Below are positions 13,413 through 64,000 of a stretch of DNA of 64,000 nucleotides, in pieces. The first letter of the stretch is position 1. Every line of letters starts with the position of its first letter. The notes beneath the pieces are model-generated. The model was not told the origin of the DNA. It made no database searches and saw nothing but the letters and a program-made list of their open reading frames with translations. Origin of the DNA: an uncultured Chloroflexia bacterium (GTDB taxonomy: Bacteria; Chloroflexota; Limnocylindria; Limnocylindrales; CSP1-4); assembly GCA_963798955.1 (NCBI GenBank), contig CAWCVO010000003.1:387074-451073 (forward strand). The letters run 5' to 3'. The position numbers and the translations under genes are program-made.

Positions 13413-13428
13413 ACGGAAATCACCTGCA

Positions 13429-15432: not shown

Positions 15433-15440
15433 CGGGACGC

Positions 15441-18976: not shown

Positions 18977-18982
18977 GCTAGC

Positions 18983-21066: not shown

Positions 21067-21087
21067 GCCTGCGCGCCAGTCTACGTG

Positions 21088-21564
21088 CTAACCCAGGGTC
21101 AATAGCTCGTCGTCGCGCTCGACACGACCACCCAGCTCGACATGGATCGCCTCGACCACCCCGGCACGCGGGGCACGTACCTCGTTTTCCATCTTCATCG
21201 CCTCGACCGCCAGCAGCCGCTCACCCTGCTCGACGGCCTGGCCCTGCTCGACCCACACGCGCACCACCCGCCCGGGGATCTGGGCCCGCAGCTGCTGGCG
21301 CGTGTGGGGCTGGTGTTCGGCAGCGGCGCGCGCCGCACGCTCGCGCAGCTCGGCGCGGCGCGCCGGCTCGACGCGAACCTCGAGCGACCAGCCATTGACG
21401 GTCACGCGGAAGTGCTGCGCAGCCGTGGCGCGGGTGTCCGGAACGGCCATCACGCGCTCACCGCGTCGCGGCGGAGGGACAACGGCAACCTGTTCCGGCT
21501 GCAACTGGATATCGAGCGGGACGTCGGGTACCAGCACCCGCACGGCGCCCCGGCGGGGACTCAT
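21088..21564 (-). CDS. biotin carboxyl carrier (biotinyl/lipoyl domain) protein
   Basis: 158 aa. The C-terminal ~70 aa are a biotinyl domain with the AMKM biotinylation motif (LLAVEAMKMENEVRAP). The ATG at 21562-21564 overlaps the biotin carboxylase stop (ATGA). Confidence 0.8.
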   Translation of the reverse strand: MSPRRGAVRVLVPDVPLDIQLQPEQVAVVPPPRRGERVMAVPDTRATAAQHFRVTVNGWSLEVRVEPARRAELRERAARAAAEHQPHTRQQLRAQIPGRVVRVWVEQGQAVEQGERLLAVEAMKMENEVRAPRAGVVEAIHVELGGRVERDDELLTLG

Positions 21565-23123
21565 CGCGGCTCGGCCGCCTCGGCAATGCCTGCCCGCCAC
21601 CAGGCGGCGGCCGCCGGTGCCGCCGCTCCATCCGCTCGGACGGGGCTTGCGGGGACGTCCTCCGTCGCTGCCCGGGCAGCCAGCTCGGCGGCGCGCAGCG
21701 CGGCGGCGGACAGGAGGGGCACGGGATCCCACAGGCGCTCGACCAGGTCGGTCGAGAGGTCCGTCGCAGCCACGAACTCGGGTCGCGTCAGCAGCCAGCG
21801 GTCGAAAGGCAACGTCGTCTGCAGCCCACCGACGACGACTTCGTCGAGCGCGCGTGCCAGCCGGGCCAGGGCGGCCGGGCGGTCGGGCGCGACCACGAGT
21901 AGCTTGGCCAGCAGCGGGTCGTAGTCGGGGCTGACCGTGCTCCCCTCCTCCACGCCCGCGTCGATGCGCACGCCCGGGCCGCCGGGCATGCGCCAGTGCT
22001 CGATGGTGCCCGGCGCCGGCGCGAAACCGTGCGCCGGATCCTCGGCGCTGAGACGGACCTCGATCGCATGACGCTGCGGATGATGGGCCGCGGCGGCGGC
22101 GGCCAGCACCGGCGCCGACAGCGGGCGGCCAGCGGCGAGCCAGAGCTGTTCGGCTACCAGGTCCAGGCCGCTGACCAGTTCGGTCACGCCATGCTCCACC
22201 TGTAATCGCGCGTTCACCTCGAGGAACCAGAACTCGCCCGCGGGGGTGAGCAGGAACTCGGCGGTCGCGGCGTTGTGCAGGCCGACCGTCCGCGCGACGG
22301 CCACGCCCAGTTCGTGGACGTGGCGGCGCTCGTCCTCGCCCAGTCCCGGGGCCGGCGCTTCCTCGACCAGCTTCTGGTGGCGACGCTGGACCGAGCAGTC
22401 GCGCTCGCCCAGGGCCACGATGTTGCCCTGCGCGTCACCCAGCAACTGGACCTCGACGTGCCGCGCGTGTTCGACATAGCGTTCCAGGTACACAGAACCG
22501 TCGCCGAAGGCGGCCGCCGCCTCGCGGGCGGCAGCGGCGAGGGCCTCGGCAAGATCACCCGGCGCTGCCACGCGGCGCATGCCGCGTCCGCCACCGCCCG
22601 CCGCCGCCTTGACCATCAGCGGAAAGCCAATGCGCTCGCCGTCGGCGACCAGCTTGCGCATGTCGCCCGCGGGATCGGCCGGCTCGAATGTCCCGGGCAC
22701 GACCGGGACGCCGGCCGCCTGGGCGCGCGCCCGCGCCGCCAGTTTGTCGCCGAGTTGTCCGAGTGTGGCGGGCGACGGACCGACGAATGCGATACCGGCC
22801 GCGGCGCAGGCCTCCGCGAGCGCCGGCTGCTCCGACAGGAATCCGTATCCCGGATGCAGTGCCTCGGCGCCCGTCGCGCGGGCGGCGGCGATGATGGCGT
22901 CGAGGTTGAGGTAGCTCTCACGGGCCGCGGCGCCACCGATGGCCACTGCCCTGTCGGCGGCGCGGACATGCGGCGCATCGATGTCGGCCGCCGAGTAGAC
23001 GGCTATCGATTCGATCCCCAGTTCACGACACGCGCGGATGACGCGGAGCGCGATCTCGCCGCGATTGGCAACCAGCAGCGACCTGAACGGCCTGCCGGGC
23101 TGGCTGTCTTTGCGCAAAGACAC
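21561..23123 (-). CDS. accC: acyl-CoA carboxylase biotin carboxylase subunit
   Basis: 520 aa. LLVANRGEIALRVIRA, ATP-grasp GGGGRGMR and EVNARLQVEHGVTE. GTG start at 23121-23123. Confidence 0.9.
   Translation of the reverse strand: MSLRKDSQPGRPFRSLLVANRGEIALRVIRACRELGIESIAVYSAADIDAPHVRAADRAVAIGGAAARESYLNLDAIIAAARATGAEALHPGYGFLSEQPALAEACAAAGIAFVGPSPATLGQLGDKLAARARAQAAGVPVVPGTFEPADPAGDMRKLVADGERIGFPLMVKAAAGGGGRGMRRVAAPGDLAEALAAAAREAAAAFGDGSVYLERYVEHARHVEVQLLGDAQGNIVALGERDCSVQRRHQKLVEEAPAPGLGEDERRHVHELGVAVARTVGLHNAATAEFLLTPAGEFWFLEVNARLQVEHGVTELVSGLDLVAEQLWLAAGRPLSAPVLAAAAAAHHPQRHAIEVRLSAEDPAHGFAPAPGTIEHWRMPGGPGVRIDAGVEEGSTVSPDYDPLLAKLLVVAPDRPAALARLARALDEVVVGGLQTTLPFDRWLLTRPEFVAATDLSTDLVERLWDPVPLLSAAALRAAELAARAATEDVPASPVRADGAAAPAAAAWWRAGIAEAAEPR
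23105..23122. repeat. 18-bp perfect palindrome TGTCTTTGCGCAAAGACA (copy 1)
   Basis: Read directly from the sequence. It covers the accC GTG start codon and the first codons (S-L-R-K-D). The same core occurs at 26176-26197. Confidence 0.9.
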
Positions 23124-49895: not shown

Positions 49896-50113
49896 AACCG
49901 TCGGGCGGCTAACCTCGCTGAACGAGGTCGACGTCGAGCGCGGGACATAATCGGGGGGTGCGGCGCTCGACATCGCGCTCCTCGCCTGTCCGGAGTGCCA
50001 TGGCGCGTTGAGTTCGCCCGGCGGCCTCGTCTTCCGGGGCATGGTCCTCGAGGCGCGCGGGAGCCGCGGCTGCCGTCGCCGCCACTGAGCAAAACTCGTC
50101 ACGGCCGAGTCGC

Positions 50114-50521
50114 GTGGCTGCCAGGCAACCCTTTAGCCTGCGATCCAGCCGCACTGCCGTTCGCAGACGGAGCCGTTCGGTCGCCACCAGCTGCGTGGGC
50201 CTCCAGAACGTCCCCGCCGAGCGTGCTTACCTGGCCGAACTGCGCCGCGTCGCAGCGACGCTGCTCGCGGTGGGCCATATCTACCCGGCCGGCGATGCGG
50301 TCAATCGGACGGTACGGCGTGAGCACGGTTACGCACACGTCGCCGATCGAGCGGTGTTCGACGGACTGTTGACCGATGCCGGCTGGCGCGCCGCCTACCC
50401 GCTCACCTGCTCTGCCGAAGCCGTCCCGACGCCGCCCGGCGAGATCATCAAGGGCATCGGCGTCCACCCGTTCCCGATCCGGCCGACAACGCTCGAGTCG
50501 CACCTCCCCGAGGCAGCCTGA
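50114..50521 (+). CDS. hypothetical protein or gene remnant
   Basis: The C-terminal two thirds (..ERAYLAELRRVAATLLAVGHIYPAGDAV..GEIIKGIGVHPFPIRP) have protein-like composition and a G/C third-position bias. There is no clear RBS. An upstream out-of-frame fragment (49951-50088) encodes LLACPECHGAL (zinc-ribbon-like) without a start codon, so this may be a decayed gene. Confidence 0.25.
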   Translation: MAARQPFSLRSSRTAVRRRSRSVATSCVGLQNVPAERAYLAELRRVAATLLAVGHIYPAGDAVNRTVRREHGYAHVADRAVFDGLLTDAGWRAAYPLTCSAEAVPTPPGEIIKGIGVHPFPIRPTTLESHLPEAA

Positions 50522-50736
50522 ACCGGCGTTCTGGAGAAACCGTTGCCAACTGGCAACAGGTCAGACGTCCTGCCGATTGGTACTTCTGTACCTACCGCCC
50601 AGCAATGTCCTAGCAAAGAGTGGCACCGACAGTCGGTGGAGTGCGTGCCTCGCTCACCCGTGAGATGGGAATGGTGCTCGCGCCCTGTGCCGGTCCGCAC
50701 CCGCGGGCCCGGCGGAAGGAGAAAAGGCTACGGCCA

Positions 50737-53700
50737 ATGGCCGAGCCCAAAGGGAGGCGAGAGGTGCCCGCAGAGCGTCCCATCTTTTGGAATCGTTTGT
50801 TCACGTTTGTGATGGCTGCAGCGATCGCGGCGTCCATGTCCGTGGTCCCGGCGAAACCCACCCTGGCTGCCGCAGATACCGCCCTTGACCTGGGCAGCTC
50901 TGGCGCCTACGTCACCTTTGGCGTCCCGGCCAAGCTGGGCCTGGCCCAGTTCACCATCGAGACCTGGTTCAAGAAGACCGGCGCCGGCACGCCCAACACG
51001 ACTGGCGGAGGCGGCATCACCATCCTGCCGCTGGTGACCCACGGCGCGCCGCAGGCCGAGAACTCGGACGTCGACGCGAACTGGATCCTGGGCATCACCA
51101 ACGTCGGGGGCGACAATCTGATCGCGGCCGACTTCGAGGCGAGCCCGGGAGGCCAGAACTACCCGGTCTGGGGCAACACCCCGATCCTCGACAACACCTG
51201 GTACCACGCAGCCGCCACCTATGACGGCACGAGCTGGGCGCTGTACCTCAACGGCTCCCCGCAGACCTTGACCTGTCCGACGACCTGCGCACCGGCCGCG
51301 GCCCCGCGCTCCGACTCGCGCCAGGGCGTGGGCCTGGGCACCATGATCACCACCGACGACTTCGGCAACATGCCCTCCTACCTGGGCCGCTTCGCCGGCG
51401 TCATCGACGAAGCGCGCGTCTGGGATCACGCCCGCACGGCCGGCCAGATCCTGGCCAACCGCGACCTCGAACTCACCTCGGGCACCGGCCTCGTCGCGCG
51501 CTGGGGCATGAACGACGGCAGCGGCTCCAATGTGAGTGACTCGATCACCTCGCCGAGCGCTGCCGACGGCACCATCAGCGGTACCGGCTACAGCTGGGTC
51601 GATGGCTTCACCGTTGCGCCACCGCCTCCGGCCAACACCGCCCTCGACCTGGGCAGCTCTGGCGCCTACGTCACCTTTGGCGTCCCGGCCAAGCTGGGCC
51701 TGGCCCAGTTCACCATCGAGACCTGGTTCAAGAAGACCGGCGCCGGCACGCCCAACACGACTGGCGGAGGCGGCATCACCATCCTGCCGCTGGTGACCCA
51801 CGGCGCGCCGCAGGCCGAGAACTCGGACGTCGACGCGAACTGGATCCTGGGCATCACCAACGTCGGGGGCGACAATCTGATCGCGGCCGACTTCGAGGCG
51901 AGCCCGGGAGGCCAGAACTACCCGGTCTGGGGCAACACCCCGATCCTCGACAACACCTGGTACCACGCAGCCGCCACCTATGACGGCACGAGCTGGGCGC
52001 TGTACCTCAACGGCTCCCCGCAGACCTTGACCTGTCCGACGACCTGCGCACCGGCCGCGGCCCCGCGCTCCGACTCGCGCCAGGGCGTGGGCCTGGGCAC
52101 CATGATCACCACCGACGACTTCGGCAACATGCCCTCCTACCTGGGCCGCTTCGCCGGCGTCATCGACGAAGCGCGCGTCTGGGATCACGCCCGCACGGCC
52201 GGCCAGATCCTGGCCAACCGCGACCTCGAACTCACCTCGGGCACCGGCCTCGTCGCGCGCTGGGGCATGAACGAGGGCTCCGGACCGGAGGTCAACGATT
52301 CGATATTGCTGCCGGACGCGGCTGACGGGAACATCAGCGGTACCGGCTACAGCTGGGTCGATGGCTTCACCATCCCCGGAGTCAACAACGTTCCCGTCGC
52401 GGTCGCCGACTCCTACAGCACCCCCCAGGACACGGCGCTCAACGTGGCTGCGCCGGGCGTCCTCGGCAACGACAACGACGCGGATCTGGACCCGCTGACG
52501 GCGATCCTGGTCGCCGACGTCTCGCACGGCAGCCTGACGCTGAATGCCGACGGCAGCTTCAGCTACACGCCCAACACGGGCTACACCGGGCCGGACTCCT
52601 TCACGTACCACGCCAGCGACGGCACCGACGACTCGAACATCGCGACCGTCTCGCTGACCGTCTCCGCAGCAGGCAACACCGCGCTCGACCTCGGCTCCGC
52701 GTCTGCGTACGTCACATTCGGTGACCCGGACAAGCTCGATCTTGCCCAGTTCACGATCGAAACCTGGTTCATGCGCACCGGGACCGGCACGCCGTCCACG
52801 ACCGGCACGAACGGCTTTGCCAACGCGATTCCGCTCGTAACGCACGGCGCCCCGGACGTTGACAACCACGACAACAACGACGAGGACTGGATTCTCGCCA
52901 TCGACGCCGACACCAACACCATCGCAGCCGACTTCGAGCAGGGCGCCGGGGGCACGACGCCGAGCTCAAACAACCCCGTGCACGGGACGACGGTCATCAC
53001 CGACAACGTCTGGCACCACGCCGCGGCGACCTATGACGGCACCACCTGGAACCTGTATCTCGATGGCAATCTGGAGGCAACCCTGGCCATCGGCGAACCG
53101 ACGCGCTCGGACACCATCGAGCAGGCGGCACTGGGCACGATGCTCACGGCGAGCGGGACGGCGAAGGGCTACTTCGACGGAGTGCTCGACGAAGCCCGCG
53201 TCTGGGACCGTGCCCTGACGGGTGCCGAGATCGCCGTATCAATGAACGAGGAACTCACCTCGGGCTCCGGGCTGGTCGCCCGCTGGGGTCTGAACGAGGG
53301 GAGCGGAACGACCGTCGGTGACTCGGTCGCCAACCCGGCGAACGGCACGATCACGGGTACCGGCTACAGCTGGGTGGCAGGCGCGCCGTTCAGCATGAGC
53401 TCCGCGCCCGACGATCCGGTGCTTGTTGCGCCGGCCGACGGCGCGACCGGTGTCTCGACCTCACCGACGCTCTCGGTTACCGCTACTGATCCGGACAGCG
53501 ATTCGCTGGACGTCGATTTCTACGGCCGGCCCGCCACAGGTGGCGGTCCGACCACGCCGTTCACTCTCGTGGTCCTGCCCGACTCCCAAAACTACGTGGT
53601 ATCGGACACCGCAGCTGAACTCTTCAACGCCCAGACGCAGTGGATCGCCGACCAGCAGTCCACGCTGAACACTGTCTTTGCTTCACAACTTGGCGACGTC

Positions 53701-55635
53701 ACCGAGAACGGCACTGTCGCGGCAGAGTGGGCGCGTGCCTCGACGGCCATGGGCATCCTCGACTCCGCCGGAATCCCATACTCGATCACCGTCGGCAACC
53801 ACGATGGCTATGCGAGCGGCTACCCCACCTTCCTCTCCACGTTCGGCGCCAACCGATACGCGGGGAAGGCCTGGTACGGCGGCTATCTCGGCGACCCGAG
53901 TGACGGGATCGACGATTTCGGGCAGAACCGAGGGAACCTCGACAGCTACCAGCTGTTCAGCGCCGACAGCATGGACTTCATCGTGCTGAATCTCGAACTC
54001 GACCTGCCAACGGCAGACCACGTGGCCGACTGGGCCGACGCCGTTCTTACTGCCTACTCGACTCGCCGAGCAATCGTGATCACGCACGCATACCTGACCA
54101 CCGGCGGCACCCGCGCGACTTCCCCCTACTTCCTGGGGAGCGGTGGTCTGAGCGCCGACGATCTTTGGCAGTCGGTGCTGAGCCAGCACTGCAACGTCTT
54201 CATGGTGCTGAACGGTCATGAGCCGGGCGAGGCACGTTTGACGAGCAACAATGCCTGTGGCCAGCCTGTTCACCAGCTGCTCCAGGACTACCAGAACGAA
54301 CCCAACGGCGGCAACGCGTGGCTCCGCTACTACGTCTTCGATCCGGCCAACAACCAGATCGACACGTACACCTACTCGCCGGTCCTCGATCAGTACCAGA
54401 CCGACGCGAGCAGCCAGTTCACGCTTGGCTACGACATGCAAGGGGCGGCGGCCTTCAACCTGATCGACACCCAGACGATAACGTCGGGCGATACCGCCTC
54501 GACGACGTGGTCGGGGCTTAATCCGGGTACGACGTACGAGTGGTACGCGGTCGTCCGCGACGGTTCGCACGCCACGACAGGCCCAACCTGGACCTTCACG
54601 ACCGGGGGAGGTTCGAACAATCCACCGGTCGCCGCTGACCAGACCATCAGCCTGCCTGCCGGCGCCTCGACCGGCGGCACGTTGACGGCCAGCGACGCCG
54701 ACAGTGATCCACTCACCTACACGATCCTCACGGCGCCGACAAAGGGATCGGTCACGCTGAACGACGCCACGACCGGCTCGTTCACCTACGTGGCCCTGCC
54801 CTCGGCGTCGGGCAGCGACAGCTTCACCTTCAAGGCCAACGACGGCACCGATGACTCCAATACGGCCACGGTGACCATCAACCTGCAGCCCGGCCAGGGC
54901 TACTGGCTGGTCGCGTCCGACGGTGGCATCTTCACCTTCGGCGACGCCGGCTTCTTCGGCTCGACGGGTGGTCCGCCAGCGCTCGATCAGCCGGTCGTCA
55001 GCATGGTGCCCACGGCGGACCGGCTGGGCTACTGGCTGGTTGCCGCGGACGGTGGCATCTTCACCTTTGGCGACGCTGGCTTCTTCGGCTCACTCGGCGG
55101 CCAGGGACTGTCCGACATCGTCGGCATGGCAGTCACGCCCGATGAGCAGGGCTACTGGATGGTCGCCTCTGACGGCCAGGTGTATACGTTCGGCGACGCC
55201 GGCGACTACGGCTCGGCCGGTAGCGTGAGCGACGCGATCGTCGGCATGGCGGCCACGCCTTCTGGCGACGGCTACTGGCTGGTTGGTCGCGACGGCGAGG
55301 TATATCAATTCGGCGGCGCCGTTGACTATGGCTCGATGGGCGGCCAGTCGCTCTTCCGGCCGGTGGTCGGCATGGCCGTCACGCCCTCGGGCAACGGCTA
55401 CTGGCTAGTTGCGTCCGATGGCGGCATCTTCACCTTCGGCGACGCAGGCTTCTATGGCTCGACCGGTGGCCAGACGCTCGATCAACCGGTGGTCGGCATG
55501 ACCGCTACGCCATCGGGTGACGGCTACTGGCTGGTGGCTGGCGATGGCGGCATCTTCACCTTCGGCGACGCAGGCTTCTATGGCTCGACCGGCGGCCAGT
55601 CGCTCGACGCAGGTGTTGTTGGAATGGGGGGTTAA
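50737..55635 (+). CDS. giant secreted multidomain protein GP1: signal peptide, 2 identical LamG, cadherin-like, LamG, metallophosphoesterase-like, FN3-like, cadherin-like, six ~41-aa propeller-like repeats
   Basis: Start is ATG 50737, or GTG 50764 with GGGAGG 6 nt upstream. Signal-like LFTFVMAAAIAASMSVVPAKPTLAAA. LamG (Laminin_G_3-type) signatures FTIETWF..WYHAAATYDG..LYLNG..GVIDEARVWD at about 50876-51635, 51635-52390 and 52675-53390. Tandem-95/cadherin-like repeats (VLGNDNDADLDPLT..GSFSYTP..GPDSFTY..SDG) at about 52381-52670 and 54609-54890. Phosphoesterase-like motifs LPDSQN, GDVTENG, GNHDG, ITHAY, NGHE at about 53550-54440. Confidence 0.85.
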   Translation: MAEPKGRREVPAERPIFWNRLFTFVMAAAIAASMSVVPAKPTLAAADTALDLGSSGAYVTFGVPAKLGLAQFTIETWFKKTGAGTPNTTGGGGITILPLVTHGAPQAENSDVDANWILGITNVGGDNLIAADFEASPGGQNYPVWGNTPILDNTWYHAAATYDGTSWALYLNGSPQTLTCPTTCAPAAAPRSDSRQGVGLGTMITTDDFGNMPSYLGRFAGVIDEARVWDHARTAGQILANRDLELTSGTGLVARWGMNDGSGSNVSDSITSPSAADGTISGTGYSWVDGFTVAPPPPANTALDLGSSGAYVTFGVPAKLGLAQFTIETWFKKTGAGTPNTTGGGGITILPLVTHGAPQAENSDVDANWILGITNVGGDNLIAADFEASPGGQNYPVWGNTPILDNTWYHAAATYDGTSWALYLNGSPQTLTCPTTCAPAAAPRSDSRQGVGLGTMITTDDFGNMPSYLGRFAGVIDEARVWDHARTAGQILANRDLELTSGTGLVARWGMNEGSGPEVNDSILLPDAADGNISGTGYSWVDGFTIPGVNNVPVAVADSYSTPQDTALNVAAPGVLGNDNDADLDPLTAILVADVSHGSLTLNADGSFSYTPNTGYTGPDSFTYHASDGTDDSNIATVSLTVSAAGNTALDLGSASAYVTFGDPDKLDLAQFTIETWFMRTGTGTPSTTGTNGFANAIPLVTHGAPDVDNHDNNDEDWILAIDADTNTIAADFEQGAGGTTPSSNNPVHGTTVITDNVWHHAAATYDGTTWNLYLDGNLEATLAIGEPTRSDTIEQAALGTMLTASGTAKGYFDGVLDEARVWDRALTGAEIAVSMNEELTSGSGLVARWGLNEGSGTTVGDSVANPANGTITGTGYSWVAGAPFSMSSAPDDPVLVAPADGATGVSTSPTLSVTATDPDSDSLDVDFYGRPATGGGPTTPFTLVVLPDSQNYVVSDTAAELFNAQTQWIADQQSTLNTVFASQLGDVTENGTVAAEWARASTAMGILDSAGIPYSITVGNHDGYASGYPTFLSTFGANRYAGKAWYGGYLGDPSDGIDDFGQNRGNLDSYQLFSADSMDFIVLNLELDLPTADHVADWADAVLTAYSTRRAIVITHAYLTTGGTRATSPYFLGSGGLSADDLWQSVLSQHCNVFMVLNGHEPGEARLTSNNACGQPVHQLLQDYQNEPNGGNAWLRYYVFDPANNQIDTYTYSPVLDQYQTDASSQFTLGYDMQGAAAFNLIDTQTITSGDTASTTWSGLNPGTTYEWYAVVRDGSHATTGPTWTFTTGGGSNNPPVAADQTISLPAGASTGGTLTASDADSDPLTYTILTAPTKGSVTLNDATTGSFTYVALPSASGSDSFTFKANDGTDDSNTATVTINLQPGQGYWLVASDGGIFTFGDAGFFGSTGGPPALDQPVVSMVPTADRLGYWLVAADGGIFTFGDAGFFGSLGGQGLSDIVGMAVTPDEQGYWMVASDGQVYTFGDAGDYGSAGSVSDAIVGMAATPSGDGYWLVGRDGEVYQFGGAVDYGSMGGQSLFRPVVGMAVTPSGNGYWLVASDGGIFTFGDAGFYGSTGGQTLDQPVVGMTATPSGDGYWLVAGDGGIFTFGDAGFYGSTGGQSLDAGVVGMGG
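50887..51515 (+). repeat. LamG-module repeat, copy 1 (629 nt identical to 51646-52274)
   Basis: Base-by-base reading shows identity over 629 nt at an offset of 759 nt. Identical antisense track ORFs at 50907..51116 and 51666..51875 confirm this. Confidence 0.9.
51646..52274 (+). repeat. LamG-module repeat, copy 2
   Basis: See copy 1. Copy 2 continues to about 52358 in near-identity with the inverted copy 3 at 61409-62118. Confidence 0.9.
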
Positions 55636-55976
55636 CGATGAATCGCTTCGCCTCGCGGACTGCTGGACAGCGCCCTGGCCGCCCCGTCCTCGGGGTGATC
55701 CTGGTTGTCCCGGCGGCTCTTGCGGCGTACCCGCCCGGGCCGTTTCCCGGTCCTGCGCCGGCCGGTCTGTTTCCGAGGGTGCTGACCAGCCAGACGGTGT
55801 GCGCCGAGGGCGGCAGCCTGGCAGCGAGCCAGGGCGCGACCGACATTCACCTCGACGTACCGGCGAACGCCTTCGGCGACTGCACCCAGGTCACCATCTA
55901 CGGGGCGGACAAGGCGCTGGCCAAGCCGCTCGTGCCCGATGGCTACGCGCTGATCGAGGCGCTGGCCGTGGGCTGG
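54609..55976. repeat. left arm of ~1.37-kb near-perfect inverted repeat (3' 1 kb of GP1 + intergenic + first ~340 nt of AP1)
   Basis: Position x pairs with 114829-x. This is verified at both ends, at the stop/start junction (55635/59194, 55638/59191) and by mirrored track ORFs (54923..55228 with 59601..59906; 55090..55308 with 59521..59739). The mismatches seen are one codon in the cadherin-like part (D vs A), a diverged ~45-nt patch in the AP signal peptide, and one H/R codon. Confidence 0.9.
54898..55632 (+). repeat. six tandem ~39-43-aa coding repeats (GYWLVasDGGiFTFGDAGFyGStGGq.L..PVVGMa.TPsG.)
   Basis: Read from the GP1 translation. Six units each start with GYW[LM]V, which is consistent with a six-bladed beta-propeller. 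Confidence 0.8.
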
Positions 55977-56357
55977 ACTCCGGCTGGGGCGGCCGCGAAC
56001 GGACTATCGCTGACGGTCAGTCATCCGGCGATCAACATCGATGGCCAGGCGTTTCGCACCACCGGCGCAGGAGTCCAGAGCGATGACGGACTCGTCATCG
56101 CCGCCGGGCGAGTGACGGCCACGGTCACCGCACCGGAGGGCATCGTCATTGTTGGCCCGGGCGTCCCGAACACCAGCACCTCGGGCGACTCGCTGACCAC
56201 CCGGTCGGATGGCGACGCGCCGGCCAGCCCGAACCTGCCCCTACTGGCCCTGCTCGTGGCGGCCGGCGCCATTGAGCTGGTGGTGCTCGGTTGGCGGCAC
56301 CAACGACACGCTGAGCCGCTTGTCACTTCTGGCCCGGACCGCCCACGACGAAATTGA
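55638..56357 (+). CDS. partner protein AP1: signal peptide, ~170-aa ectodomain, C-terminal TM anchor with basic tail
   Basis: The ATG lies 2 nt after the GP1 stop (TAACGATG). Signal-like VLGVILVVPAALAAYPP, two Cys, then PNTSTSGD, a spacer, TM (LPLLALLVAAGAIELVVLGW) and RHQRH. Paralogue of AP2. Confidence 0.7.
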   Translation: MNRFASRTAGQRPGRPVLGVILVVPAALAAYPPGPFPGPAPAGLFPRVLTSQTVCAEGGSLAASQGATDIHLDVPANAFGDCTQVTIYGADKALAKPLVPDGYALIEALAVGWTPAGAAANGLSLTVSHPAINIDGQAFRTTGAGVQSDDGLVIAAGRVTATVTAPEGIVIVGPGVPNTSTSGDSLTTRSDGDAPASPNLPLLALLVAAGAIELVVLGWRHQRHAEPLVTSGPDRPRRN

Positions 56358-58569
56358 CCGACACGGACGCCGAGTACCCGTGCGGAAATGGATCGGTGAT
56401 CCAGGTCTGATAGAAGACCTCGTACGCCTGCTGCTGGATGGCAATGACGTGGAAGTGGGCGATCCCGTTCTCGTCCGTGAGGGCTTCCACCGGGCTCTGT
56501 CCTTCAGGTCGCCCGTTGATCGAGGTTTCGCCCGGATATAGGCCCTCGGCGGTGTAGAGCACCTGGCCCATGCTGATGGATACCCCCGACCGTTGGATGG
56601 GCGTGTTGAGCCGGTCCACGAGCTGCACAGTAAAGTCCACCTCGGGGGGATCGGCGACCTCATGGTTGACGGCCTGGGGCAGTATCTGCGCACGTTCCTC
56701 GACAGCCGGAAAGAGGCGCGCTGAACTGATCGAAGGCGGGCTCGCAGTCAACGCGTAGAGCACCGACTGCTGGTCTACGCCGGGCATCGAGGCCGTGTTC
56801 GGCGCGAGCAGGACGTACTCGGCAGTCGCCCCCGCGGGCAGCACCGTGGGTCCCTCATGGATGATCCAGTAGCTGCTCATGTAGGGTCCCAGCGCAACAG
56901 CGAAGTGCGGCTCCAGATCTCCTGCCGAAGCGTTGTGAGCGCGCACGACCAGGCTATCGACACTCTGCAGGGCACCCGTGGTGTGCTGGTCGACTGGCTC
57001 GAGCAGGAGCGGACCCGGAGACAGCAAAGCGACCACGAGCAGCGCAGCTCCACCCGCCGCGAACGCGACGCTCGTGAATCGCGCGGCCCAGCGTCTCAGG
57101 CGCTCGCTAATGGCAGTGCGCGATCCAATTCCGTCGACGGTGGCCAGCGAGACCAGGATCGCGGGAACGGCATAGACGAAGTAGCTGTTGAGTGATCTGG
57201 TCGGGAGCAGCAGCGCCACGAGCGGCAGGGCCGGCAGGATTCGCTTCAGGCTGCCGTACCAGCCGACCAGGGCCACGAGCGCGGCGAGCATCACCAGCGC
57301 ACCTGCGAGGGTGAAGGCGACCAGGTTCCCGCCCGCCACGAAGAACGTGGTGGCAAAGGCCACGAAGCCCTGGCCAAAGGGCACCAGCGGGTCAACAAAG
57401 GGCAGGAGGACACTCGTGAGCCAGGCGGACGGGTCCCAGATGATGAACGGCACATTGGGAACCAGGAAGGCGGCCGCCAGGAGGAAGAAATAGCGTGTGA
57501 CAACCGACCTGCCGCGGCCGTGCAGGCGTGCTTCGAGAGCGATCGCAATCAGGGCAAACGGCACGACAAACCACGCCGACTGCTTGACGGTGCACGCCAA
57601 ACCGAGAGCGATCGGACCGAGCCAGCGCGCGGCAGAGGGCTCAGATGGGTCGCCGAAGCGGTCCCAGCGCCAGAAGGCGGCGACCAGGAACGGGATCATG
57701 AGCGGGTCGGTTACGCCGCCCGTGGCGTAGTTCACATAGAGCTCGAGGCTGGCGATGATCGGCACGAGGCCGCGGAACCTGGGTGGCAGAGCGAGCCACA
57801 TCGCGACCATCCCCAAAATCCAGAACGCCGCATCGACGTACAACGCGGCTTGCGCCTGGATTCCCACGGCGAGGACGGGTACGTAGGCGAGGAACGCGCC
57901 GGCTGGGTAGTCCAGACTGTGGACGAAGCCGCCCGAAAGTGTGTTGGTGGTCCCGGAAGGCAGCACGCGGAACGCGTCGAGTGTCCACGACAGATCAGCG
58001 CCGTACGGGTTCGTGCCCTGCAGGAGCAGCTGAGCGGCACCCTGGTCGAAGGCAACCTCGTCGGTTCCGTAGGCCGGGCTGCCGTACACGGCGACGCGTG
58101 TCCAGACCCCAAGCGCTACGACCACGCCAACGATCAGGATGGCGTCGATCGAGCGCCCCCAGCGCTTGCCCAGCGGCAGGCCCGCTGCGACCAGCAGGAT
58201 GACGCCCGCCGCCGTGTATAGAAATCCAAGCTCGGGCGCGCCGCTGACCACGAACGACGGCTGGTAGAGCTTGAGGCCCCAGAGGATCCAGATGAGCGCG
58301 CCAACGATCCGCAGGAGAACCGGCAGGTCAATGGTTGTCGCGGGACCCGGAGGTGCCGCGACGCGATGATCGTCGCTGATGTGAAAGCCCTCTCGTACTC
58401 CCCTCAGACCCTTTGGAGACGCCCGGGGAGAGACGACTGAGCTAGCTTCGCCTCTGTCGCCGCCACCCGCGCACGAGCAGCATGAACGCGCCGAGCAAGC
58501 CGAGCAAGCCGAAAGCGATCGCGAGCAGCCCCGGGCCACTCGCCGAAGGATCCAGCGCCGGCGTGTCAA
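56323..58569 (-). CDS. polytopic membrane protein, GT-C-fold glycosyltransferase-like (DUF2029/GT87-like by eye) with ~250-aa C-terminal extracytoplasmic domain
   Basis: About 12-14 TM helices. The first loop carries YGTDEVAFDQGAAQLLLQGTNPYG, an acidic motif plus NPY as in GT-C mannosyl/arabinosyl-transferase-like families. The only in-frame starts upstream of the first TM are TTG 58569 and GTG 58539, both inside AP2. The 3' end overlaps AP1 by 35 nt. Confidence 0.7.
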   Translation of the reverse strand: MTRRRWILRRVARGCSRSLSACSACSARSCCSCAGGGDRGEASSVVSPRASPKGLRGVREGFHISDDHRVAAPPGPATTIDLPVLLRIVGALIWILWGLKLYQPSFVVSGAPELGFLYTAAGVILLVAAGLPLGKRWGRSIDAILIVGVVVALGVWTRVAVYGSPAYGTDEVAFDQGAAQLLLQGTNPYGADLSWTLDAFRVLPSGTTNTLSGGFVHSLDYPAGAFLAYVPVLAVGIQAQAALYVDAAFWILGMVAMWLALPPRFRGLVPIIASLELYVNYATGGVTDPLMIPFLVAAFWRWDRFGDPSEPSAARWLGPIALGLACTVKQSAWFVVPFALIAIALEARLHGRGRSVVTRYFFLLAAAFLVPNVPFIIWDPSAWLTSVLLPFVDPLVPFGQGFVAFATTFFVAGGNLVAFTLAGALVMLAALVALVGWYGSLKRILPALPLVALLLPTRSLNSYFVYAVPAILVSLATVDGIGSRTAISERLRRWAARFTSVAFAAGGAALLVVALLSPGPLLLEPVDQHTTGALQSVDSLVVRAHNASAGDLEPHFAVALGPYMSSYWIIHEGPTVLPAGATAEYVLLAPNTASMPGVDQQSVLYALTASPPSISSARLFPAVEERAQILPQAVNHEVADPPEVDFTVQLVDRLNTPIQRSGVSISMGQVLYTAEGLYPGETSINGRPEGQSPVEALTDENGIAHFHVIAIQQQAYEVFYQTWITDPFPHGYSASVSVNFVVGGPGQK

Positions 58570-59191
58570 GGGTGTCGCCCGAGGTGCTGGTGTTCGGGAT
58601 TCCCGGACCGACGATGACGATGCCTACCGGATCGTTCACGGTTACGGTCACCTCGCCGGCACTCACGACGAGCCCATCGTCGTTCTGTATGCCCCCGCCC
58701 GTGGTGCGGAATGCCAGGGTCTTGGAGTTGATCGCTGTGCTACGGACCGTCAGCACAAGCCCCGATACGAGCTGCCCGACGATCGCCGAGTGGCCAGACG
58801 CGGCCTGCCCGACCGACAGTGACAGGCTGGAGGCAGACACCCCGGTCGCCGACCAGCCCACGGCCAGCGCCTCGATCAGCGCGTAGCCATCGGGCACGAG
58901 CGGCTTGGCCAGCGCCTTGTCCGCCCCGTAGATGGTGACCTGGGTGCAGTCGCCGAAGGCGTTCGCCGGTACGTCGAGGCGAATGTCGGTCGCGCCCTGG
59001 CTCGCTGCCAGGCTGCCGCCCTCGGCGCACACCGTCTGGCTGGTCAGCACCCTCGGAAACAGACCGGCCGGCGCAGGACCGGGAAACGGCCCGGGCGGGT
59101 ACGCCGCAAGAGCCGCCGGGACAACCAGGAGCACCCCGAGGAAGGCGGCGGCCAGGCCGCTGCCCAGCCGCCGCGAGGCGAAGCGATTCAT
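58442..59191 (-). CDS. partner protein AP2 (paralogue of AP1): signal peptide, ectodomain, C-terminal TM anchor with basic tail
   Basis: 249 aa. The N-terminal ~113 aa are almost identical to AP1. C-terminus: IPNTSTSGD, a spacer, LLAIAFGLLGLLGAFMLLV, then RGWRRQRRS. The ATG lies 2 nt after the GP2 stop. Confidence 0.7.
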   Translation of the reverse strand: MNRFASRRLGSGLAAAFLGVLLVVPAALAAYPPGPFPGPAPAGLFPRVLTSQTVCAEGGSLAASQGATDIRLDVPANAFGDCTQVTIYGADKALAKPLVPDGYALIEALAVGWSATGVSASSLSLSVGQAASGHSAIVGQLVSGLVLTVRSTAINSKTLAFRTTGGGIQNDDGLVVSAGEVTVTVNDPVGIVIVGPGIPNTSTSGDTLDTPALDPSASGPGLLAIAFGLLGLLGAFMLLVRGWRRQRRS

Positions 59192-60220
59192 CGTTAACCC
59201 CCCATTCCAACAACACCTGCGTCGAGCGACTGGCCGCCGGTCGAGCCATAGAAGCCTGCGTCGCCGAAGGTGAAGATGCCGCCATCGCCAGCCACCAGCC
59301 AGTAGCCGTCACCCGATGGCGTAGCGGTCATGCCGACCACCGGTTGATCGAGCGTCTGGCCACCGGTCGAGCCATAGAAGCCTGCGTCGCCGAAGGTGAA
59401 GATGCCGCCATCGGACGCAACTAGCCAGTAGCCGTTGCCCGAGGGCGTGACGGCCATGCCGACCACCGGCCGGAAGAGCGACTGGCCGCCCATCGAGCCA
59501 TAGTCAACGGCGCCGCCGAATTGATATACCTCGCCGTCGCGACCAACCAGCCAGTAGCCGTCGCCAGAAGGCGTGGCCGCCATGCCGACGATCGCGTCGC
59601 TCACGCTACCGGCCGAGCCGTAGTCGCCGGCGTCGCCGAACGTATACACCTGGCCGTCAGAGGCGACCATCCAGTAGCCCTGCTCATCGGGCGTGACTGC
59701 CATGCCGACGATGTCGGACAGTCCCTGGCCGCCGAGTGAGCCGAAGAAGCCAGCGTCGCCAAAGGTGAAGATGCCACCGTCCGCGGCAACCAGCCAGTAG
59801 CCCAGCCGGTCCGCCGTGGGCACCATGCTGACGACCGGCTGATCGAGCGCTGGCGGACCACCCGTCGAGCCGAAGAAGCCGGCGTCGCCGAAGGTGAAGA
59901 TGCCACCGTCGGACGCGACCAGCCAGTAGCCCTGGCCGGGCTGCAGGTTGATGGTCACCGTGGCCGTATTGGAGTCAGCGGTGCCGTCGTTGGCCTTGAA
60001 GGTGAAGCTGTCGCTGCCCGACGCCGAGGGCAGGGCCACGTAGGTGAACGAGCCGGTCGTGGCGTCGTTCAGCGTGACCGATCCCTTTGTCGGCGCCGTG
60101 AGGATCGTGTAGGTGAGTGGATCACTGTCGGCGTCGCTGGCCGTCAACGTGCCGCCGGTCGAGGCGCCGGCAGGCAGGCTGATGGTCTGGTCAGCGGCGA
60201 CCGGTGGATTGTTCGAACCT
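58853..60220. repeat. right arm of the ~1.37-kb inverted repeat
   Basis: Reverse complement of 54609-55976 (see left arm). Confidence 0.9.
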
Positions 60221-63200
60221 GGCGGCGCTCCGTGGACAAAGCCGGTGCCGGAGTCCGTGAAGGTGTAGCCGTCCATCGGCAGGAACACCCAGTCGTAGGA
60301 GTCCGCGTGGAGCGTCAGCTTGAAGATGCCGAATGTGTCGTTGTTGCGCACGACGCTGGTCGCCAGGGTGGTGCCGAGCGGGTGATGCTCCTCACCGCCC
60401 ATGCCCACGGTGAACTGCTGGATCCCGTACGTCGGATCGGCGACAGGCGCGTCAGCGGGCGTGGCACCAGACTTCATGGGCACGAAGCGTTCGTAGATGT
60501 GGTCGTGGCCGTCCAGCAGGATGTCCACGCCGCCGGCATACAGGTCATCCCACAATGGCTGTAAAGCCTGGAGGTTGGTCTGACCCGAGCTGTAGCGCGG
60601 CTTGTGCCACAGCGCGATCACGTTCTTCGTGCTGTTCGCGGCCAGGTCCGCCTTGAGCCACAGTTCCTGCGGCGAGCCGACATCGCAACCGCCCGGAACC
60701 AGCTCGCACTCACTGTCGAGATTGACGATGTGCCAGTTGCTGGCCGGGATGTCGTAGCTGTAGTAGCTGTTGCCATCGGCGTCGGTTGCGTTCGCGCCAA
60801 AGAAGTCGAAGTACGCCGTCAGGCTGCCGGGACGCTGGCCGTCACCCCAGTCGTGGTTGCCGGCGATTGGACGGGTGCGGTCGAAGACCGACGGATCGCC
60901 CCACGGGGTCGGCGCATAGCAGTCCGCGTACTCCGTCGCGGTCCCGGTTGCGTAGACGTTGTCGCCCGTGGTGAAGATGTTGCCGTCGATGCCCTCGATG
61001 ATGTTGCCGGTGGCCGAGTCGTCGGTGGTGTCGCACGAAGCAATGTCGCCGACACCGACGAAGACCGGGTCGGAGCTTGGTGTGGTGTGGAAGGTCCAGG
61101 TGGGACCGGTCGTGGTCAGGGTCCCGTCGCTGAGGGTCACATACCACTCGAACTCCTGGCCCTGGCCGAGGTTCGACCACGTCGCTGTATCGCTGGCCGC
61201 GGTCACATTCGTGTGCTGGGCGATCTGGGCAAAGTTGCCGCTGGCGAAGGGTCGCCCGTAGTAGGTGACCGTCAGAGGATCGCCGTCCGGATCAGACACG
61301 CCGACGTCAAGCGTCGGCGAGGTCCCGACACCGGTGGCGCCGTCAGACGGCGCGTTGAGCGTCGGCGCATCGGGCGGCGTATCGCCGGAGGGAGGCACGA
61401 AGCCGTCTACCCAGCTGTAGCCGGTACCGCTGATGTTCCCGTCAGCCGCGTCCGGCAGCAATATCGAATCGTTGACCTCCGGTCCGGAGCCCTCGTTCAT
61501 GCCCCAGCGCGCGACGAGGCCGGTGCCCGAGGTGAGTTCGAGGTCGCGGTTGGCCAGGATCTGGCCGGCCGTGCGGGCGTGATCCCAGACGCGCGCTTCG
61601 TCGATGACGCCGGCGAAGCGGCCCAGGTAGGAGGGCATGTTGCCGAAGTCGTCGGTGGTGATCATGGTGCCCAGGCCCACGCCCTGGCGCGAGTCGGAGC
61701 GCGGGGCCGCGGCCGGTGCGCAGGTCGTCGGACAGGTCAAGGTCTGCGGGGAGCCGTTGAGGTACAGCGCCCAGCTCGTGCCGTCATAGGTGGCGGCTGC
61801 GTGGTACCAGGTGTTGTCGAGGATCGGGGTGTTGCCCCAGACCGGGTAGTTCTGGCCTCCCGGGCTCGCCTCGAAGTCGGCCGCGATCAGATTGTCGCCC
61901 CCGACGTTGGTGATGCCCAGGATCCAGTTCGCGTCGACGTCCGAGTTCTCGGCCTGCGGCGCGCCGTGGGTCACCAGCGGCAGGATGGTGATGCCGCCTC
62001 CGCCAGTCGTGTTGGGCGTGCCGGCGCCGGTCTTCTTGAACCAGGTCTCGATGGTGAACTGGGCCAGGCCCAGCTTGGCCGGGACGCCAAAGGTGACGTA
62101 GGCGCCAGAGCTGCCCAGATCGAGGGCGGTGTTGCCCGGGCCACCGCTGGGCTGGAATTCGTAGGCACCGCGATCGTCGTAGGTGCGGCTGCCAGCGCCG
62201 CTGTCGGTCGTGGCCGGGTCGTCGATGCGCGGTTTGCCCTCGATGTCCGTGGCCTGCTGGTTCGACGCGGCCGAGTCGGCGCTATCGATCGCCGGCGAGC
62301 CCGCGGTCAGGTGGTAGTCGCCGACGTTGATCGCGACGTTAAACGGGGCAACAGCGGGACGCTGAGCGATGGGCGCTGCCGCCGCGAACAGCGGATCCCC
62401 CTCAAGCCCGTGTGCCTCCTGTCCGGACACTGCCGTCTGGAAGGCGGAGAGCGAGGTATAGCTGACGCTGTTCCACTGGATGGTCTGCGACGTCCCATCC
62501 GTCTCGTAGATCAAGTCGTAGTCCATGCTCGTGCCGCTGACCGAAGCCGCGTCCACGCGGATGTTGGTGGGCTGGCCGCTGGCCGTCCCGGAAGGGGACT
62601 GCCGGCGCAGGCCGTTGTCGACCGAGATGTTGTTGGCCAGGATTGCGCCCCCCGAGCCGGTCGAACCCTCGAGGTTGATGCCGGCGGTGACGTTGCCCTG
62701 GACGGTGTTACCGACGATCACGTTGTTGGGCGCGTTGTTGTTGTCGATGCCGTGGTCGCCGTTGCCGTAGCTCAGGTTGTCGATGAAGTAGTTCGACTGC
62801 GCCCCGGCATAGGCCTGCAGGCCCGAGTCCTCGTTGTCGTAGGTGATGTTGTTGATGATCGTGTTGTTGTCCGAGCCGATGCCGGTGACCTGGATGCCGG
62901 TCGCGTTGCGCTCCCACTCCTCCGCGTTGCCGAAGGAGGTGTTGTTGCTGACCAGGTTGTCCGACGAGCCACCCGTCAGCCGGATCCCATCCTGGCTGTT
63001 GTGGTCGGTGGTGTTGCCGGTGATGACCGAGGAGTCGGTGTTGGTGAAGTAGATGCCCATGCGCGTGACCGCAGGGGTGGCCTGGACCGGACTGCCAGCC
63101 GAGCTGACGTGGTTGTTCGAAATGGTTATGTGGTCGGCTCCCGAGGCGTAGATGCCGTAGTCCACCGTGTCAGTGATCGTGAAGCCGTCGATGACGATGT

Positions 63201-64000
63201 AGCTATGGCCGGTCGAGCCAGTCATGCGGAAGGCATTGCCAGTGGCAGTGCCGCTGCCTGTGACCGTCACGCCGGGCGCCGCCGAGTAGGTGATCGGGTT
63301 GCCCGCGGTGCCGGAATGAGCCGGGCTCACGGTCTCCGCATAGGTGCCGGCAACAACCAGGACACTCTCACCGGGTTGCAGCACGCTGGCGGCCTGGCCG
63401 ATCGTACAGAAAGGTGCCGCCGCAGTGCCGGAACCGCCGTCGGAACAGCTTCCGTTGGTTTTGTCGACGTAGTAGGTGGAACTGCCACTGGTCGGCGCGC
63501 CGTGCACCGCAGCCGTACCTGAATCCGTGTAGGTCTGACCGGCGATGGGCAGGAAGACCCAGTCGTACGAGGTCGGGTGCAGGGTCAGCTTGAGCACGCC
63601 AAAGGTGGTGCCGCTGCCGGTCACGGTCGCGGGGAATGAGCCGTTGTACGACTGCAGTGCCGCGCCGCCGGTGCCGACCGTGAACTGCCGCACGCCGTAG
63701 GTCGTGTCGACTGCGCCGGTGGGATCGATCGGCTGCATGCGCTCGTAGATGTGATCGTGGCCCTCGAGGAGGATGTCCACGCCCGCGTCGTAGATGTCCT
63801 GGTAGAACGCCTGCAAGGCGGTGTCGGTGGTGACGCCCGAGCTGAAACGAGGCTTGTGCCAAATGGCGATGACGTTCTTGCCGCTGTTGATCGCCAGGTC
63901 GGCCTTCAGCCATAGCTCCTGAGGTGAGCCGGCGGCGCAGCCGCCGGGCACCAGCTGGCATTCCGTGTCGAGATTGACCACGTGCCAATTGCTGCTGGGG
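59194..64000 (-). CDS. giant secreted multidomain protein GP2 (5' end beyond the window): PAP-like metallophosphoesterase, right-handed beta-helix, LamG, FN3-like, second PAP-like metallophosphoesterase, cadherin-like, six propeller-like repeats
   Basis: The frame stays open to position 64000 (..PSSNWHVVNLD), so the gene is partial. Purple-acid-phosphatase-type motifs GDIASC, GDNVY, GNHDW, WHKP and GHDHIYER lie at about 60225-61085, and a second, truncated copy at about 63500-64000. PbH1/beta-helix repeats (ITISNNHV, ITGNTTDHN, LVSNNTSFGN, IINNITYDN, FIDNLSYGN, VIVGNTVQGN, LANNISVDN) lie at about 62180-63480. LamG at 61409-62118. The C-terminal 340 aa are identical, bar one residue, to GP1. 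Confidence 0.85.
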   Translation of the reverse strand, partial: PSSNWHVVNLDTECQLVPGGCAAGSPQELWLKADLAINSGKNVIAIWHKPRFSSGVTTDTALQAFYQDIYDAGVDILLEGHDHIYERMQPIDPTGAVDTTYGVRQFTVGTGGAALQSYNGSFPATVTGSGTTFGVLKLTLHPTSYDWVFLPIAGQTYTDSGTAAVHGAPTSGSSTYYVDKTNGSCSDGGSGTAAAPFCTIGQAASVLQPGESVLVVAGTYAETVSPAHSGTAGNPITYSAAPGVTVTGSGTATGNAFRMTGSTGHSYIVIDGFTITDTVDYGIYASGADHITISNNHVSSAGSPVQATPAVTRMGIYFTNTDSSVITGNTTDHNSQDGIRLTGGSSDNLVSNNTSFGNAEEWERNATGIQVTGIGSDNNTIINNITYDNEDSGLQAYAGAQSNYFIDNLSYGNGDHGIDNNNAPNNVIVGNTVQGNVTAGINLEGSTGSGGAILANNISVDNGLRRQSPSGTASGQPTNIRVDAASVSGTSMDYDLIYETDGTSQTIQWNSVSYTSLSAFQTAVSGQEAHGLEGDPLFAAAAPIAQRPAVAPFNVAINVGDYHLTAGSPAIDSADSAASNQQATDIEGKPRIDDPATTDSGAGSRTYDDRGAYEFQPSGGPGNTALDLGSSGAYVTFGVPAKLGLAQFTIETWFKKTGAGTPNTTGGGGITILPLVTHGAPQAENSDVDANWILGITNVGGDNLIAADFEASPGGQNYPVWGNTPILDNTWYHAAATYDGTSWALYLNGSPQTLTCPTTCAPAAAPRSDSRQGVGLGTMITTDDFGNMPSYLGRFAGVIDEARVWDHARTAGQILANRDLELTSGTGLVARWGMNEGSGPEVNDSILLPDAADGNISGTGYSWVDGFVPPSGDTPPDAPTLNAPSDGATGVGTSPTLDVGVSDPDGDPLTVTYYGRPFASGNFAQIAQHTNVTAASDTATWSNLGQGQEFEWYVTLSDGTLTTTGPTWTFHTTPSSDPVFVGVGDIASCDTTDDSATGNIIEGIDGNIFTTGDNVYATGTATEYADCYAPTPWGDPSVFDRTRPIAGNHDWGDGQRPGSLTAYFDFFGANATDADGNSYYSYDIPASNWHIVNLDSECELVPGGCDVGSPQELWLKADLAANSTKNVIALWHKPRYSSGQTNLQALQPLWDDLYAGGVDILLDGHDHIYERFVPMKSGATPADAPVADPTYGIQQFTVGMGGEEHHPLGTTLATSVVRNNDTFGIFKLTLHADSYDWVFLPMDGYTFTDSGTGFVHGAPPGSNNPPVAADQTISLPAGASTGGTLTASDADSDPLTYTILTAPTKGSVTLNDATTGSFTYVALPSASGSDSFTFKANDGTADSNTATVTINLQPGQGYWLVASDGGIFTFGDAGFFGSTGGPPALDQPVVSMVPTADRLGYWLVAADGGIFTFGDAGFFGSLGGQGLSDIVGMAVTPDEQGYWMVASDGQVYTFGDAGDYGSAGSVSDAIVGMAATPSGDGYWLVGRDGEVYQFGGAVDYGSMGGQSLFRPVVGMAVTPSGNGYWLVASDGGIFTFGDAGFYGSTGGQTLDQPVVGMTATPSGDGYWLVAGDGGIFTFGDAGFYGSTGGQSLDAGVVGMGG
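59197..59931 (-). repeat. six tandem ~41-aa propeller-like coding repeats of GP2
   Basis: Mirror image of 54898-55632. Confidence 0.8.
61409..62118 (-). repeat. LamG-module repeat, copy 3 (inverted; near-identical to 51649-52358)
   Basis: Position x in copy 2 pairs with 113767-x. The identical antisense track ORF 61892..62101 matches 51666..51875. The translated LamG is identical to GP1 LamG-2, including the NEGSGPEVNDSILLPDAADGNISG tail. Confidence 0.85.

Follow-up and report, generated by a model that had tools for sequence, protein, structure and literature searches.

We analyzed a 64,000-nucleotide (nt) stretch of contig CAWCVO010000003.1 (assembly GCA_963798955.1) from an uncultured Chloroflexia bacterium, hereafter the window, whose right-hand end carries a long, near-perfect inverted repeat. 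The repeat lies in two convergent gene cassettes, each pairing a gene for a giant secreted multidomain protein (giantL, giantR) with one for a small membrane-anchored protein (AP1, AP2), and between them stands a single gene for a membrane protein with a predicted GT-C glycosyltransferase fold. The features on which the analysis turns are as follows (aa, amino acids).

50620-55635, + strand: giantL, a secreted multidomain protein of 1671 aa with three LamG domains, two Big_9/cadherin-like domains, a weak metallophosphoesterase match, and a C-terminal six-repeat module
54609-55976, + strand: left arm, comprising 1027 nt from the 3' end of giantL (encoding a Big_9/cadherin-like domain and six repeats of 42 aa), a 2-nt spacer, and AP1 codons 1 to 113
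55638-56357, + strand: AP1, 239 aa, with a signal peptide, a beta-rich ectodomain, a PNTST motif, and a C-terminal transmembrane anchor
55659-55698, + strand: divergence island in the AP1 signal-peptide region, with two compensating 1-nt indels and five substitutions
55977-58852, no strand: unique center of 2876 nt, holding the diverged 3' halves of AP1 and AP2 and the GT-C-fold gene
56323-58251, - strand: central gene, whose polytopic membrane product is predicted to adopt a GT-C glycosyltransferase fold and ends in two Ig-like domains
58442-59191, - strand: AP2, 249 aa, a paralog of AP1 that shares its direction with the GT-C gene, the arrangement of the ancestral single operon
58853-60220, - strand: right arm, comprising the last 1027 nt of giantR, a 2-nt spacer, and AP2 codons 1 to 113
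59194-64000, - strand: giantR, cut by the window end, with LamG, beta-helix/NosD, LamG, metallophosphoesterase, and Big_9 domains and the six-repeat module

The arms are reverse complements over 1368 nt, with position x facing 114829-x, base by base, throughout 54609-55976. Gapped alignment revealed nine differences between them (99.5% identity), comprising seven substitutions and two compensating 1-nt indels, and seven of the nine fell inside the 40-nt island at 55659-55698 (indels at 55659 and 55683; substitutions at 55661, 55667, 55673, 55686, and 55698). As a result, AP codons 8 to 16 are read in a different frame on the two arms, and in an ungapped register the island appears as about 19 mismatches. 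The other two differences are A/C at 54851 (Asp/Ala in the giant proteins) and A/G at 55849 (His/Arg). A repeat search of the window returned the same structure as two pairs, 54609-55658 with 59171-60220 (1050 nt; identity rounding to 100%) and 55684-56030 with 58799-59145 (347 nt; 93%). The outer edge of the arms is abrupt, with pairing at chance level (about 30%) through 54608 and identity thereafter; the inner edge is soft, fading across 55977-56030, with about 71% similarity continuing to 56207. Each arm holds 1027 nt of giant gene 3' end, the spacer, and 339 nt of AP, and the TAA-CG-ATG junction between giant and AP genes is the same on both (giantL stop TAA at 55635; AP1 ATG at 55638). 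A 1.37-kb repeat at 99.5% identity cannot be a product of chance, and the same palindrome is present in independent assemblies of relatives.

A preliminary description of this DNA had placed the repeat at these coordinates and in this register, with a few differences clustered at the AP signal peptide, around a unique 2876-nt center with divergent AP 3' halves and the whole GT-C gene; the repeat search and alignment agree with it on all of these points. Its account of arm content was right for the 3' kilobase of the giant genes and the 2-nt junction but not for AP, of which it assigned the first third to the arm; the actual share is 45 to 47% (113 codons). Its gene labels also stand: both AP proteins begin with a signal peptide and end in an anchor, and the GT-C label is backed by the top 18 PDB matches of the predicted structure (see below).

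To place the palindrome among relatives, we used the GT-C protein to find six close loci, designated L001, L085, L086, L113, L083, and L084. The nearest species-level genomes are Microflora Danica long-read metagenome-assembled genomes (MAGs) from soil; MAGs labeled MFD derive from deep Nanopore sequencing of soils (PMC12313526). Two cassettes were present in L001 (ENA ERZ25039495; arms at 8097-9680 and 12061-13644, 1584 nt, 100% identical) and in L085 (ENA ERZ25039495; arms of 1594 nt, 99.2% identical). L086 (ERZ25039539) is 99.5% identical to window positions 49971-56351, and its contig ends at the AP1 3' end. L113 is a 2.5-kb JGI contig that holds a center of the L001 type. One of its ends falls about 200 nt within an arm and the other 35 nt before the opposite arm begins, which is how an independent assembly would be expected to break off at a near-perfect repeat. 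Among 80 GTDB species-representative loci, none had inverted repeats reaching 250 nt and 85% identity around the GT-C homolog, indicating that the palindrome is confined to a narrow lineage. A scan of JGI metagenomes with the GT-C protein returned distant relatives only (at most 46% identical) and added no data on orientation.

The remaining two loci, L083 and L084, have flanks 99.0 to 99.75% identical to the window and carry one cassette only, lacking the following segment.

49992-56341, + strand: left cassette (giantL and AP1, including the whole left arm), 6.35 kb

In its place, L083 and L084 have 120 nt (L083 11911-12030) with relics of AP1, one from its 5' end (55655-55693; 36 of 38 positions match) and one from its 3' end (56269-56341). 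These decayed relics indicate that the two strains lost the left cassette and were not primitively without it. L083 and L084 are themselves about 100% identical over the giant-AP-GT-C island (L083 760-12100) and 76 to 96% identical in the MurT/GatD/FtsX flank (12100-21917), with the break at a junction equal to window 49991/49992. Either the island passed between species recently, or a metagenome contig is chimeric.

Outside the arms, the two cassettes are old. From codon 114 to the end, AP1 and AP2 are 54% identical in amino acid sequence, with 0.89 synonymous substitutions per synonymous site (dS); the 300 giant codons upstream of the arms are 32% identical, and the non-arm parts of these genes are saturated (dS 0.89 to 1.1). 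Inside the arms, dS over 341 giant codons is 0. Purifying selection alone was rejected as the cause of arm identity, since synonymous sites are identical too. The two arms of any one genome differ at 0 to 9 positions (0 to 2 in L001; 7 in L085), compared to 18 to 20 between L001 and L085. Site patterns across the four arms of these two genomes comprised 15 genome-specific (aabb) and 0 position-specific (abab) sites inside the arm, and the four position-specific sites observed all lie at the inner edge, past the tract. The AP C-terminal anchors, by contrast with this grouping by genome, are orthologous by position in both the window clade and the L001/L085 clade, indicating that the duplication is older than the clade split. 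These data make it extremely improbable that the second cassette was copied very recently and without conversion. Such a young inverted duplication would fit the absence of the left cassette from two strains with flanks so close to those of the window, and it would fit the 99.9% identity between the N-terminal LamG modules of giantL and giantR. It is contradicted, however, by saturation in the non-arm parts of the same genes, by AP1-type anchors that are orthologous in two clades with arms 17% apart, by the 15-to-0 excess of genome-specific sites, and by the AP1 relics that mark the cassette-less strains as cases of loss.

The extent and content of the homogenized tract also vary. In the window it stops inward at about AP codon 113, and in L001 and L085 it reaches about codon 185; the outer boundary is identical in both clades. 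L086 has left-arm alleles at 54851 and 55849 but right-arm alleles over 55659-55698, a mosaic that reads as short-patch conversion in which the AP2 version of the island replaced the AP1 version. The AP1 relic in L083 and L084 retains the AP1-type island, showing that this version is the ancestral AP1 sequence. Old paralogy outside the arms with identity inside them, arms that group by genome, variable tract ends, and the patch in L086 uphold the suggestion of gene conversion made in the preliminary description, and we consider it very likely that recurrent gene conversion between old paralogs keeps the arms near-identical.

Several observations weigh against this conclusion. The right arm of the window differs from its L083 ortholog at five positions, compared to seven substitutions and two indels from its own paralog, and within the window's own clade the conversion signal is weaker. 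Only five two-cassette genomes are available, and they fall in two clades. Conversion is also compatible with accompanying crossovers, that is, with inversions. In addition, conversion alone is insufficient to explain the divergence between clades, where the arms are 17% apart against a background of 1 to 3% (window-clade arms are 83% identical to those of L001 and L085, compared to 97% for the GT-C gene and about 99% for the flanks). Between clades, dS for the arms and AP is 0.3 to 0.4, which is 3 to 4 times that of the center (GT-C gene, 0.097), with dN/dS of 0.2 to 0.45. Either import of alleles or a raised local rate is required to account for the 17% divergence, and the pattern of dS and dN points to imported alleles. 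Positive selection was rejected as the source of this divergence, given the dN/dS values and the 3- to 4-fold elevation of dS itself. The window clade and L001/L085 thus carry two deeply diverged arm alleles in near-identical backgrounds.

A further point against the conversion reading concerns the assemblies. The window, L001, L085, and L086, which are all the two-cassette loci extending past an arm, are metagenome assemblies with Flye-style contig names, which we took to be long-read, and polishing with misplaced reads could exaggerate arm identity. Arm-specific differences kept in the window and L085 argue against full homogenization by software. That the palindrome is altogether an artifact of assembly or polishing, with one arm collapsed, duplicated, or homogenized by software, is very unlikely. 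Both the source and its relatives are metagenome assemblies, the MFD MAGs deriving from deep Nanopore data (PMC12313526), and fragmented genes in several relatives suggest residual indel errors. Nevertheless, the palindrome recurs in five assemblies, drawn from two data sources and a minimum of four samples, with differing flanking middles; each arm lies within a long, uninterrupted reading frame, and the domains upstream of the two arms differ; the differences just mentioned are preserved; and a unique center and unique flanks are inconsistent with a simple hairpin chimera.

The arms are not the only inverted repeat at this locus. A second pair lies farther out in the giant genes, as follows.

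51628-52368, + strand: left LamG module of the outer inverted repeat, 741 nt, 99% complementary to 61399-62139
61399-62139, - strand: right LamG module of the outer inverted repeat, in giantR, from the repeat search

Together the two repeats form a nested palindrome, with these LamG modules outermost, then the variable middles of the giant genes, then the arms, and the single GT-C gene at the center. A tandem sister copy of the left module at 50866-51609, part of a 759-nt tandem duplication within giantL, matches the giantR N-terminal LamG module seen in L083 at 99.9% identity. In L001, the outer pair spans the N-terminal 1503 nt of both giant genes, which are 100% identical and inverted (2158-3660 and 15886-17388). 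In L085, a beta-helix/NosD module at 10116-11420 lies in the MurT-side giant gene (2265 aa) and is related to window 62144-63475 in giantR. The presence of this module in opposite giant genes in L085 and the window indicates that modules are shuffled between the inverted paralogs.

The preliminary description had also proposed that the repeat brackets a possible invertible module. On this reading, reciprocal recombination between the arms would invert the 2.9-kb center appreciably often, so that now one giant operon and now the other would be followed by the GT-C gene and the AP2-type anchor. The substrate for such flip-flop is ample, with 1.37-kb arms of 99.5% identity only 2.9 kb apart. The design is also symmetrical: all frames remain intact either way, and the GT-C gene would always lie downstream of, and codirectional with, a giant-AP pair. 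Moreover, the outer LamG repeat is nested around the arms, and the beta-helix module in the "other" giant gene of L085 indicates that modules do move between genes. However, comparison with related genomes, which the preliminary description had proposed as a check, showed the palindrome kept, the arms grouped by genome, and the center never flipped. All four loci with informative flanks (window, L086, L001, and L085, from two clades) had the same orientation, with the AP1-type anchor adjoining the MurT-side giant gene. The GT-C gene pointed toward MurT wherever an assembly reached MurT, including the single-cassette relatives L083 and L084 (L086 ends at the AP1 3' end). A single orientation in two clades is weak evidence against crossovers, and each consensus assembly displays one isomer.

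The gene content and expected consequences of inversion likewise argue against a switch. No recombinase gene, invertase and integrase included, was found within 10 kb on either side in the Pfam tables of L083 and L084, which are co-linear with the window, and the center holds AP ends and the GT-C gene only. Site-specific invertases of the hin, fim, and shufflon types act at sites of tens of base pairs, whereas the arms are 1368 nt of coding sequence. A promoter scan of 49.5-64 kb, center included, performed no better than on shuffled sequence, and the terminator-like matches in that interval are repeated coding sequence. Because the arms are at the 3' ends of convergent genes, inversion would switch neither a promoter nor 5' coding sequence; with identical arms, inversion would leave the giant proteins as they are and retain both AP anchors, altering operon linkage only. 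Inversion of the center at an appreciable frequency is unsupported by these data and distinctly unlikely, although occasional RecA-mediated flipping is plausible and low-rate crossovers between such arms are to be expected on mechanistic grounds.

A broader reading is that the nested palindrome works as a recombinational cassette system, in which conversions and crossovers move modules and flip the center or the 9-kb inner segment, with alleles of the whole island exchanged between species. Hints in this direction are the extra beta-helix of L085, the variable presence of the left cassette, the 17% divergence of arm alleles in backgrounds that differ by 1 to 3%, and the near-complete identity of the L083 and L084 islands next to a flank with about 85% identity. 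This is rather unlikely on present data; if true, the locus would generate population-level variants of the cell-surface repertoire.

Under the gene conversion reading, the arms would be the homogenized part of two old, convergent paralogous operons flanking a single GT-C-fold gene. In each operon, translational coupling would link a giant, secreted protein of many domains to a small AP anchored in the membrane. Recurrent nonreciprocal homologous recombination (ectopic conversion, presumably RecA dependent, although we infer the recombination machinery) would copy patches from arm to arm, so that the giant C-terminal module (Big_9 plus six 42-aa repeats) and the AP N-terminal half evolve in concert. 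The outer boundary would be fixed at 54609/60220, at the domain linker GSNNPPVAADQ, because homology stops there and tracts cannot enter nonhomologous DNA, and the inner boundary would shift between lineages. Identity may even be favored, since the two cassettes would have their anchoring module and its partners (AP and GT-C) in common. Divergent arm alleles may be acquired from other strains by recombination and afterward be passed on to the second copy.

Comparable behavior is known from other systems. In Salmonella, the inversely oriented tufA and tufB genes undergo concerted evolution by conversion, with contiguous tracts that are blocked by nonhomology (PMC5485169), and tufA/tufB concerted evolution also occurs in other Enterobacteriaceae (PMC5485169, PMC6735719). 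The resemblance is close, in that two inverted copies of about 1.2 to 1.4 kb are kept near-identical by nonreciprocal intrachromosomal recombination and tracts end where homology does; crossovers between the tuf copies yield inversions. The tuf copies, unlike those at the present locus, are complete essential genes separated by 762 kb. Here, the repeat comprises the 3' module of one gene and the 5' half of the next, in convergent copies 2.9 kb apart, and it belongs to accessory surface-protein genes, one copy of which is naturally dispensable and which are known from sequence alone.

Surface-protein genes offer two further parallels. Concerted evolution of the 3' segments of outer membrane protein genes is known for babA/babB and other hop pairs in Helicobacter pylori, which share with the present genes a variable 5' or middle part, a homogenized 3' anchoring module, short tracts, and mosaicism among strains. 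The bab loci differ in being dispersed, with no palindrome around a shared gene, and their conversion yields chimeric genes that are expressed and alter adhesion; at the present locus, the converted tract continues past the end of one gene into the next. In Campylobacter fetus, RecA-dependent inversion occurs between oppositely oriented S-layer gene cassettes (sap). As here, oppositely oriented surface-protein paralogs share a long conserved block on which homologous, not site-specific, recombination acts. The sap cassettes are divergent, however, with the block at their 5' ends and the single promoter on the segment that inverts, so that inversion switches expression. The present genes converge and share their block at the 3' ends, with no apparent promoter logic and no inversion seen in assemblies. 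Plastid inverted repeats undergo copy correction as well as flip-flop, with both isomers in equal amounts. The arms of primate Y-chromosome palindromes are kept identical by arm-to-arm gene conversion (PMC4772468). The present locus shares with both the architecture of an arm, a unique spacer, and an inverted arm, arm identity that exceeds the age of the duplication, and spacer inversion as an expected by-product of crossover, but it is on the scale of kilobases rather than tens of kilobases to megabases, and one isomer is seen.

The GT-C-fold gene at the center of the palindrome is called from GTG 58251 (P0066, 642 aa). The sole upstream start codons are GTG 58539 and TTG 58569, both overlapping the AP2 3' end, and one of these is probably the true start, because homologs have one more N-terminal transmembrane helix, which the structural model also predicts with confidence. 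Since the Ig-like domains swamped the fold search with the full-length model (matches to transglutaminase, scFv, and complement), the transmembrane domain was modeled separately. Its AlphaFold2 model (pLDDT 87.9; pTM 0.88) had GT-C enzymes as all of its top 18 Foldseek matches in the PDB, including ALG3 (E value 1.2e-4; TM-scores 0.51/0.59), Pmt4, AftA, Pmt1/2, ArnT, AftB, AglB, PimE, and EmbB. The product is thus predicted from this model to have a polytopic GT-C membrane fold. By sequence, the protein had no Pfam or NCBIfam match even at E values of 1 to 10 or below, and its family profile had no sequence match in the PDB. A motif, P-A-Y-G-T-D-E, follows the N-terminal helices, with Y, T, and D invariant in 31 homologs; it is a candidate for the conserved acidic site that GT-C enzymes carry in the first extracytoplasmic loop.

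Loci with a GT-C homolog, 86 in total (L001 to L086), come from Acidimicrobiia, Thermoleophilia (including Paraconexibacter sp. NZ_CP114014), and related MAGs, and in 42 of them an AP-like open reading frame lies just upstream on the same strand. More distant relatives such as L002 have a single codirectional giant-AP-GT-C operon, indicating that one operon is the ancestral state. The right cassette and GT-C gene of the window retain this layout, and the left cassette is an extra, convergent paralog.

The full-length giantR has 2103 aa in L083, a strain 99.75% identical to the window. The C-terminal module encoded by the arms consists of a Big_9 domain and six 42-aa repeats (GYWLV..DGG.F.FGDA), which within the window are confined to the arms, and the six-repeat module had no match in Pfam or NCBIfam (permissive thresholds included) or among PDB sequences. 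AP1 and AP2 share a layout of signal peptide, beta-rich ectodomain, PNTST, Ser/Pro linker, C-terminal transmembrane helix, and basic tail (RRQRR), and neither matched Pfam or NCBIfam, again at permissive thresholds. Searches for the exact AP1 and AP2 sequences among recorded proteins returned no entry, and the window's own proteins were recognized through the members of protein clusters. An invariant P-N-T-S-T (VPNTST; an N-X-S/T sequon) stands ahead of the AP linker and anchor (56140-56200 in AP1; 58610-58660 in AP2). As to sorting signals of the sortase or exosortase type, no NCBIfam sorting domain matched the AP proteins, and the conserved PNTST lies about 20 residues ahead of the transmembrane helix, not adjacent to it. 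As a speculation, PNTST near a GT-C-fold gene is a candidate glycosylation site. AP1 is translationally coupled to giantL through the TAA-CG-ATG junction, and its 3' end overlaps that of the GT-C gene by 35 nt (56323-56357). This overlap arises from a C terminus 14 residues longer than in L086 (239 versus 225 aa), an extension that may stem from a real indel or residual sequencing error. Elsewhere in the window, the sole Rfam match was a bacterial class A RNase P RNA (8735-9087, - strand; 204 bits).

The mechanism proposed here, concerted evolution of inverted paralogs, is known, and the case is a clear but ordinary one. What is new is where it occurs, in a tract of two genes within a surface-protein/GT-C island from an uncultured, high-G+C soil lineage; there, concerted evolution is visible at three time scales (saturated paralogs, clades that differ by 17%, and strains that differ by 0.5%). 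A long, near-perfect inverted repeat that encloses a short unique center need not be a switch, and two or three relatives suffice to tell conversion from inversion. Because the converted tract is bounded by protein modules and spans the gene junction, these sequences suggest that the giant C-terminal module and the AP N-terminal half form one functional unit. The pairing of an AP-like gene with a GT-C/Ig-like gene is uncharacterized and widely conserved in Acidimicrobiia, Thermoleophilia, and related MAGs, and this pair may glycosylate or anchor large surface proteins.

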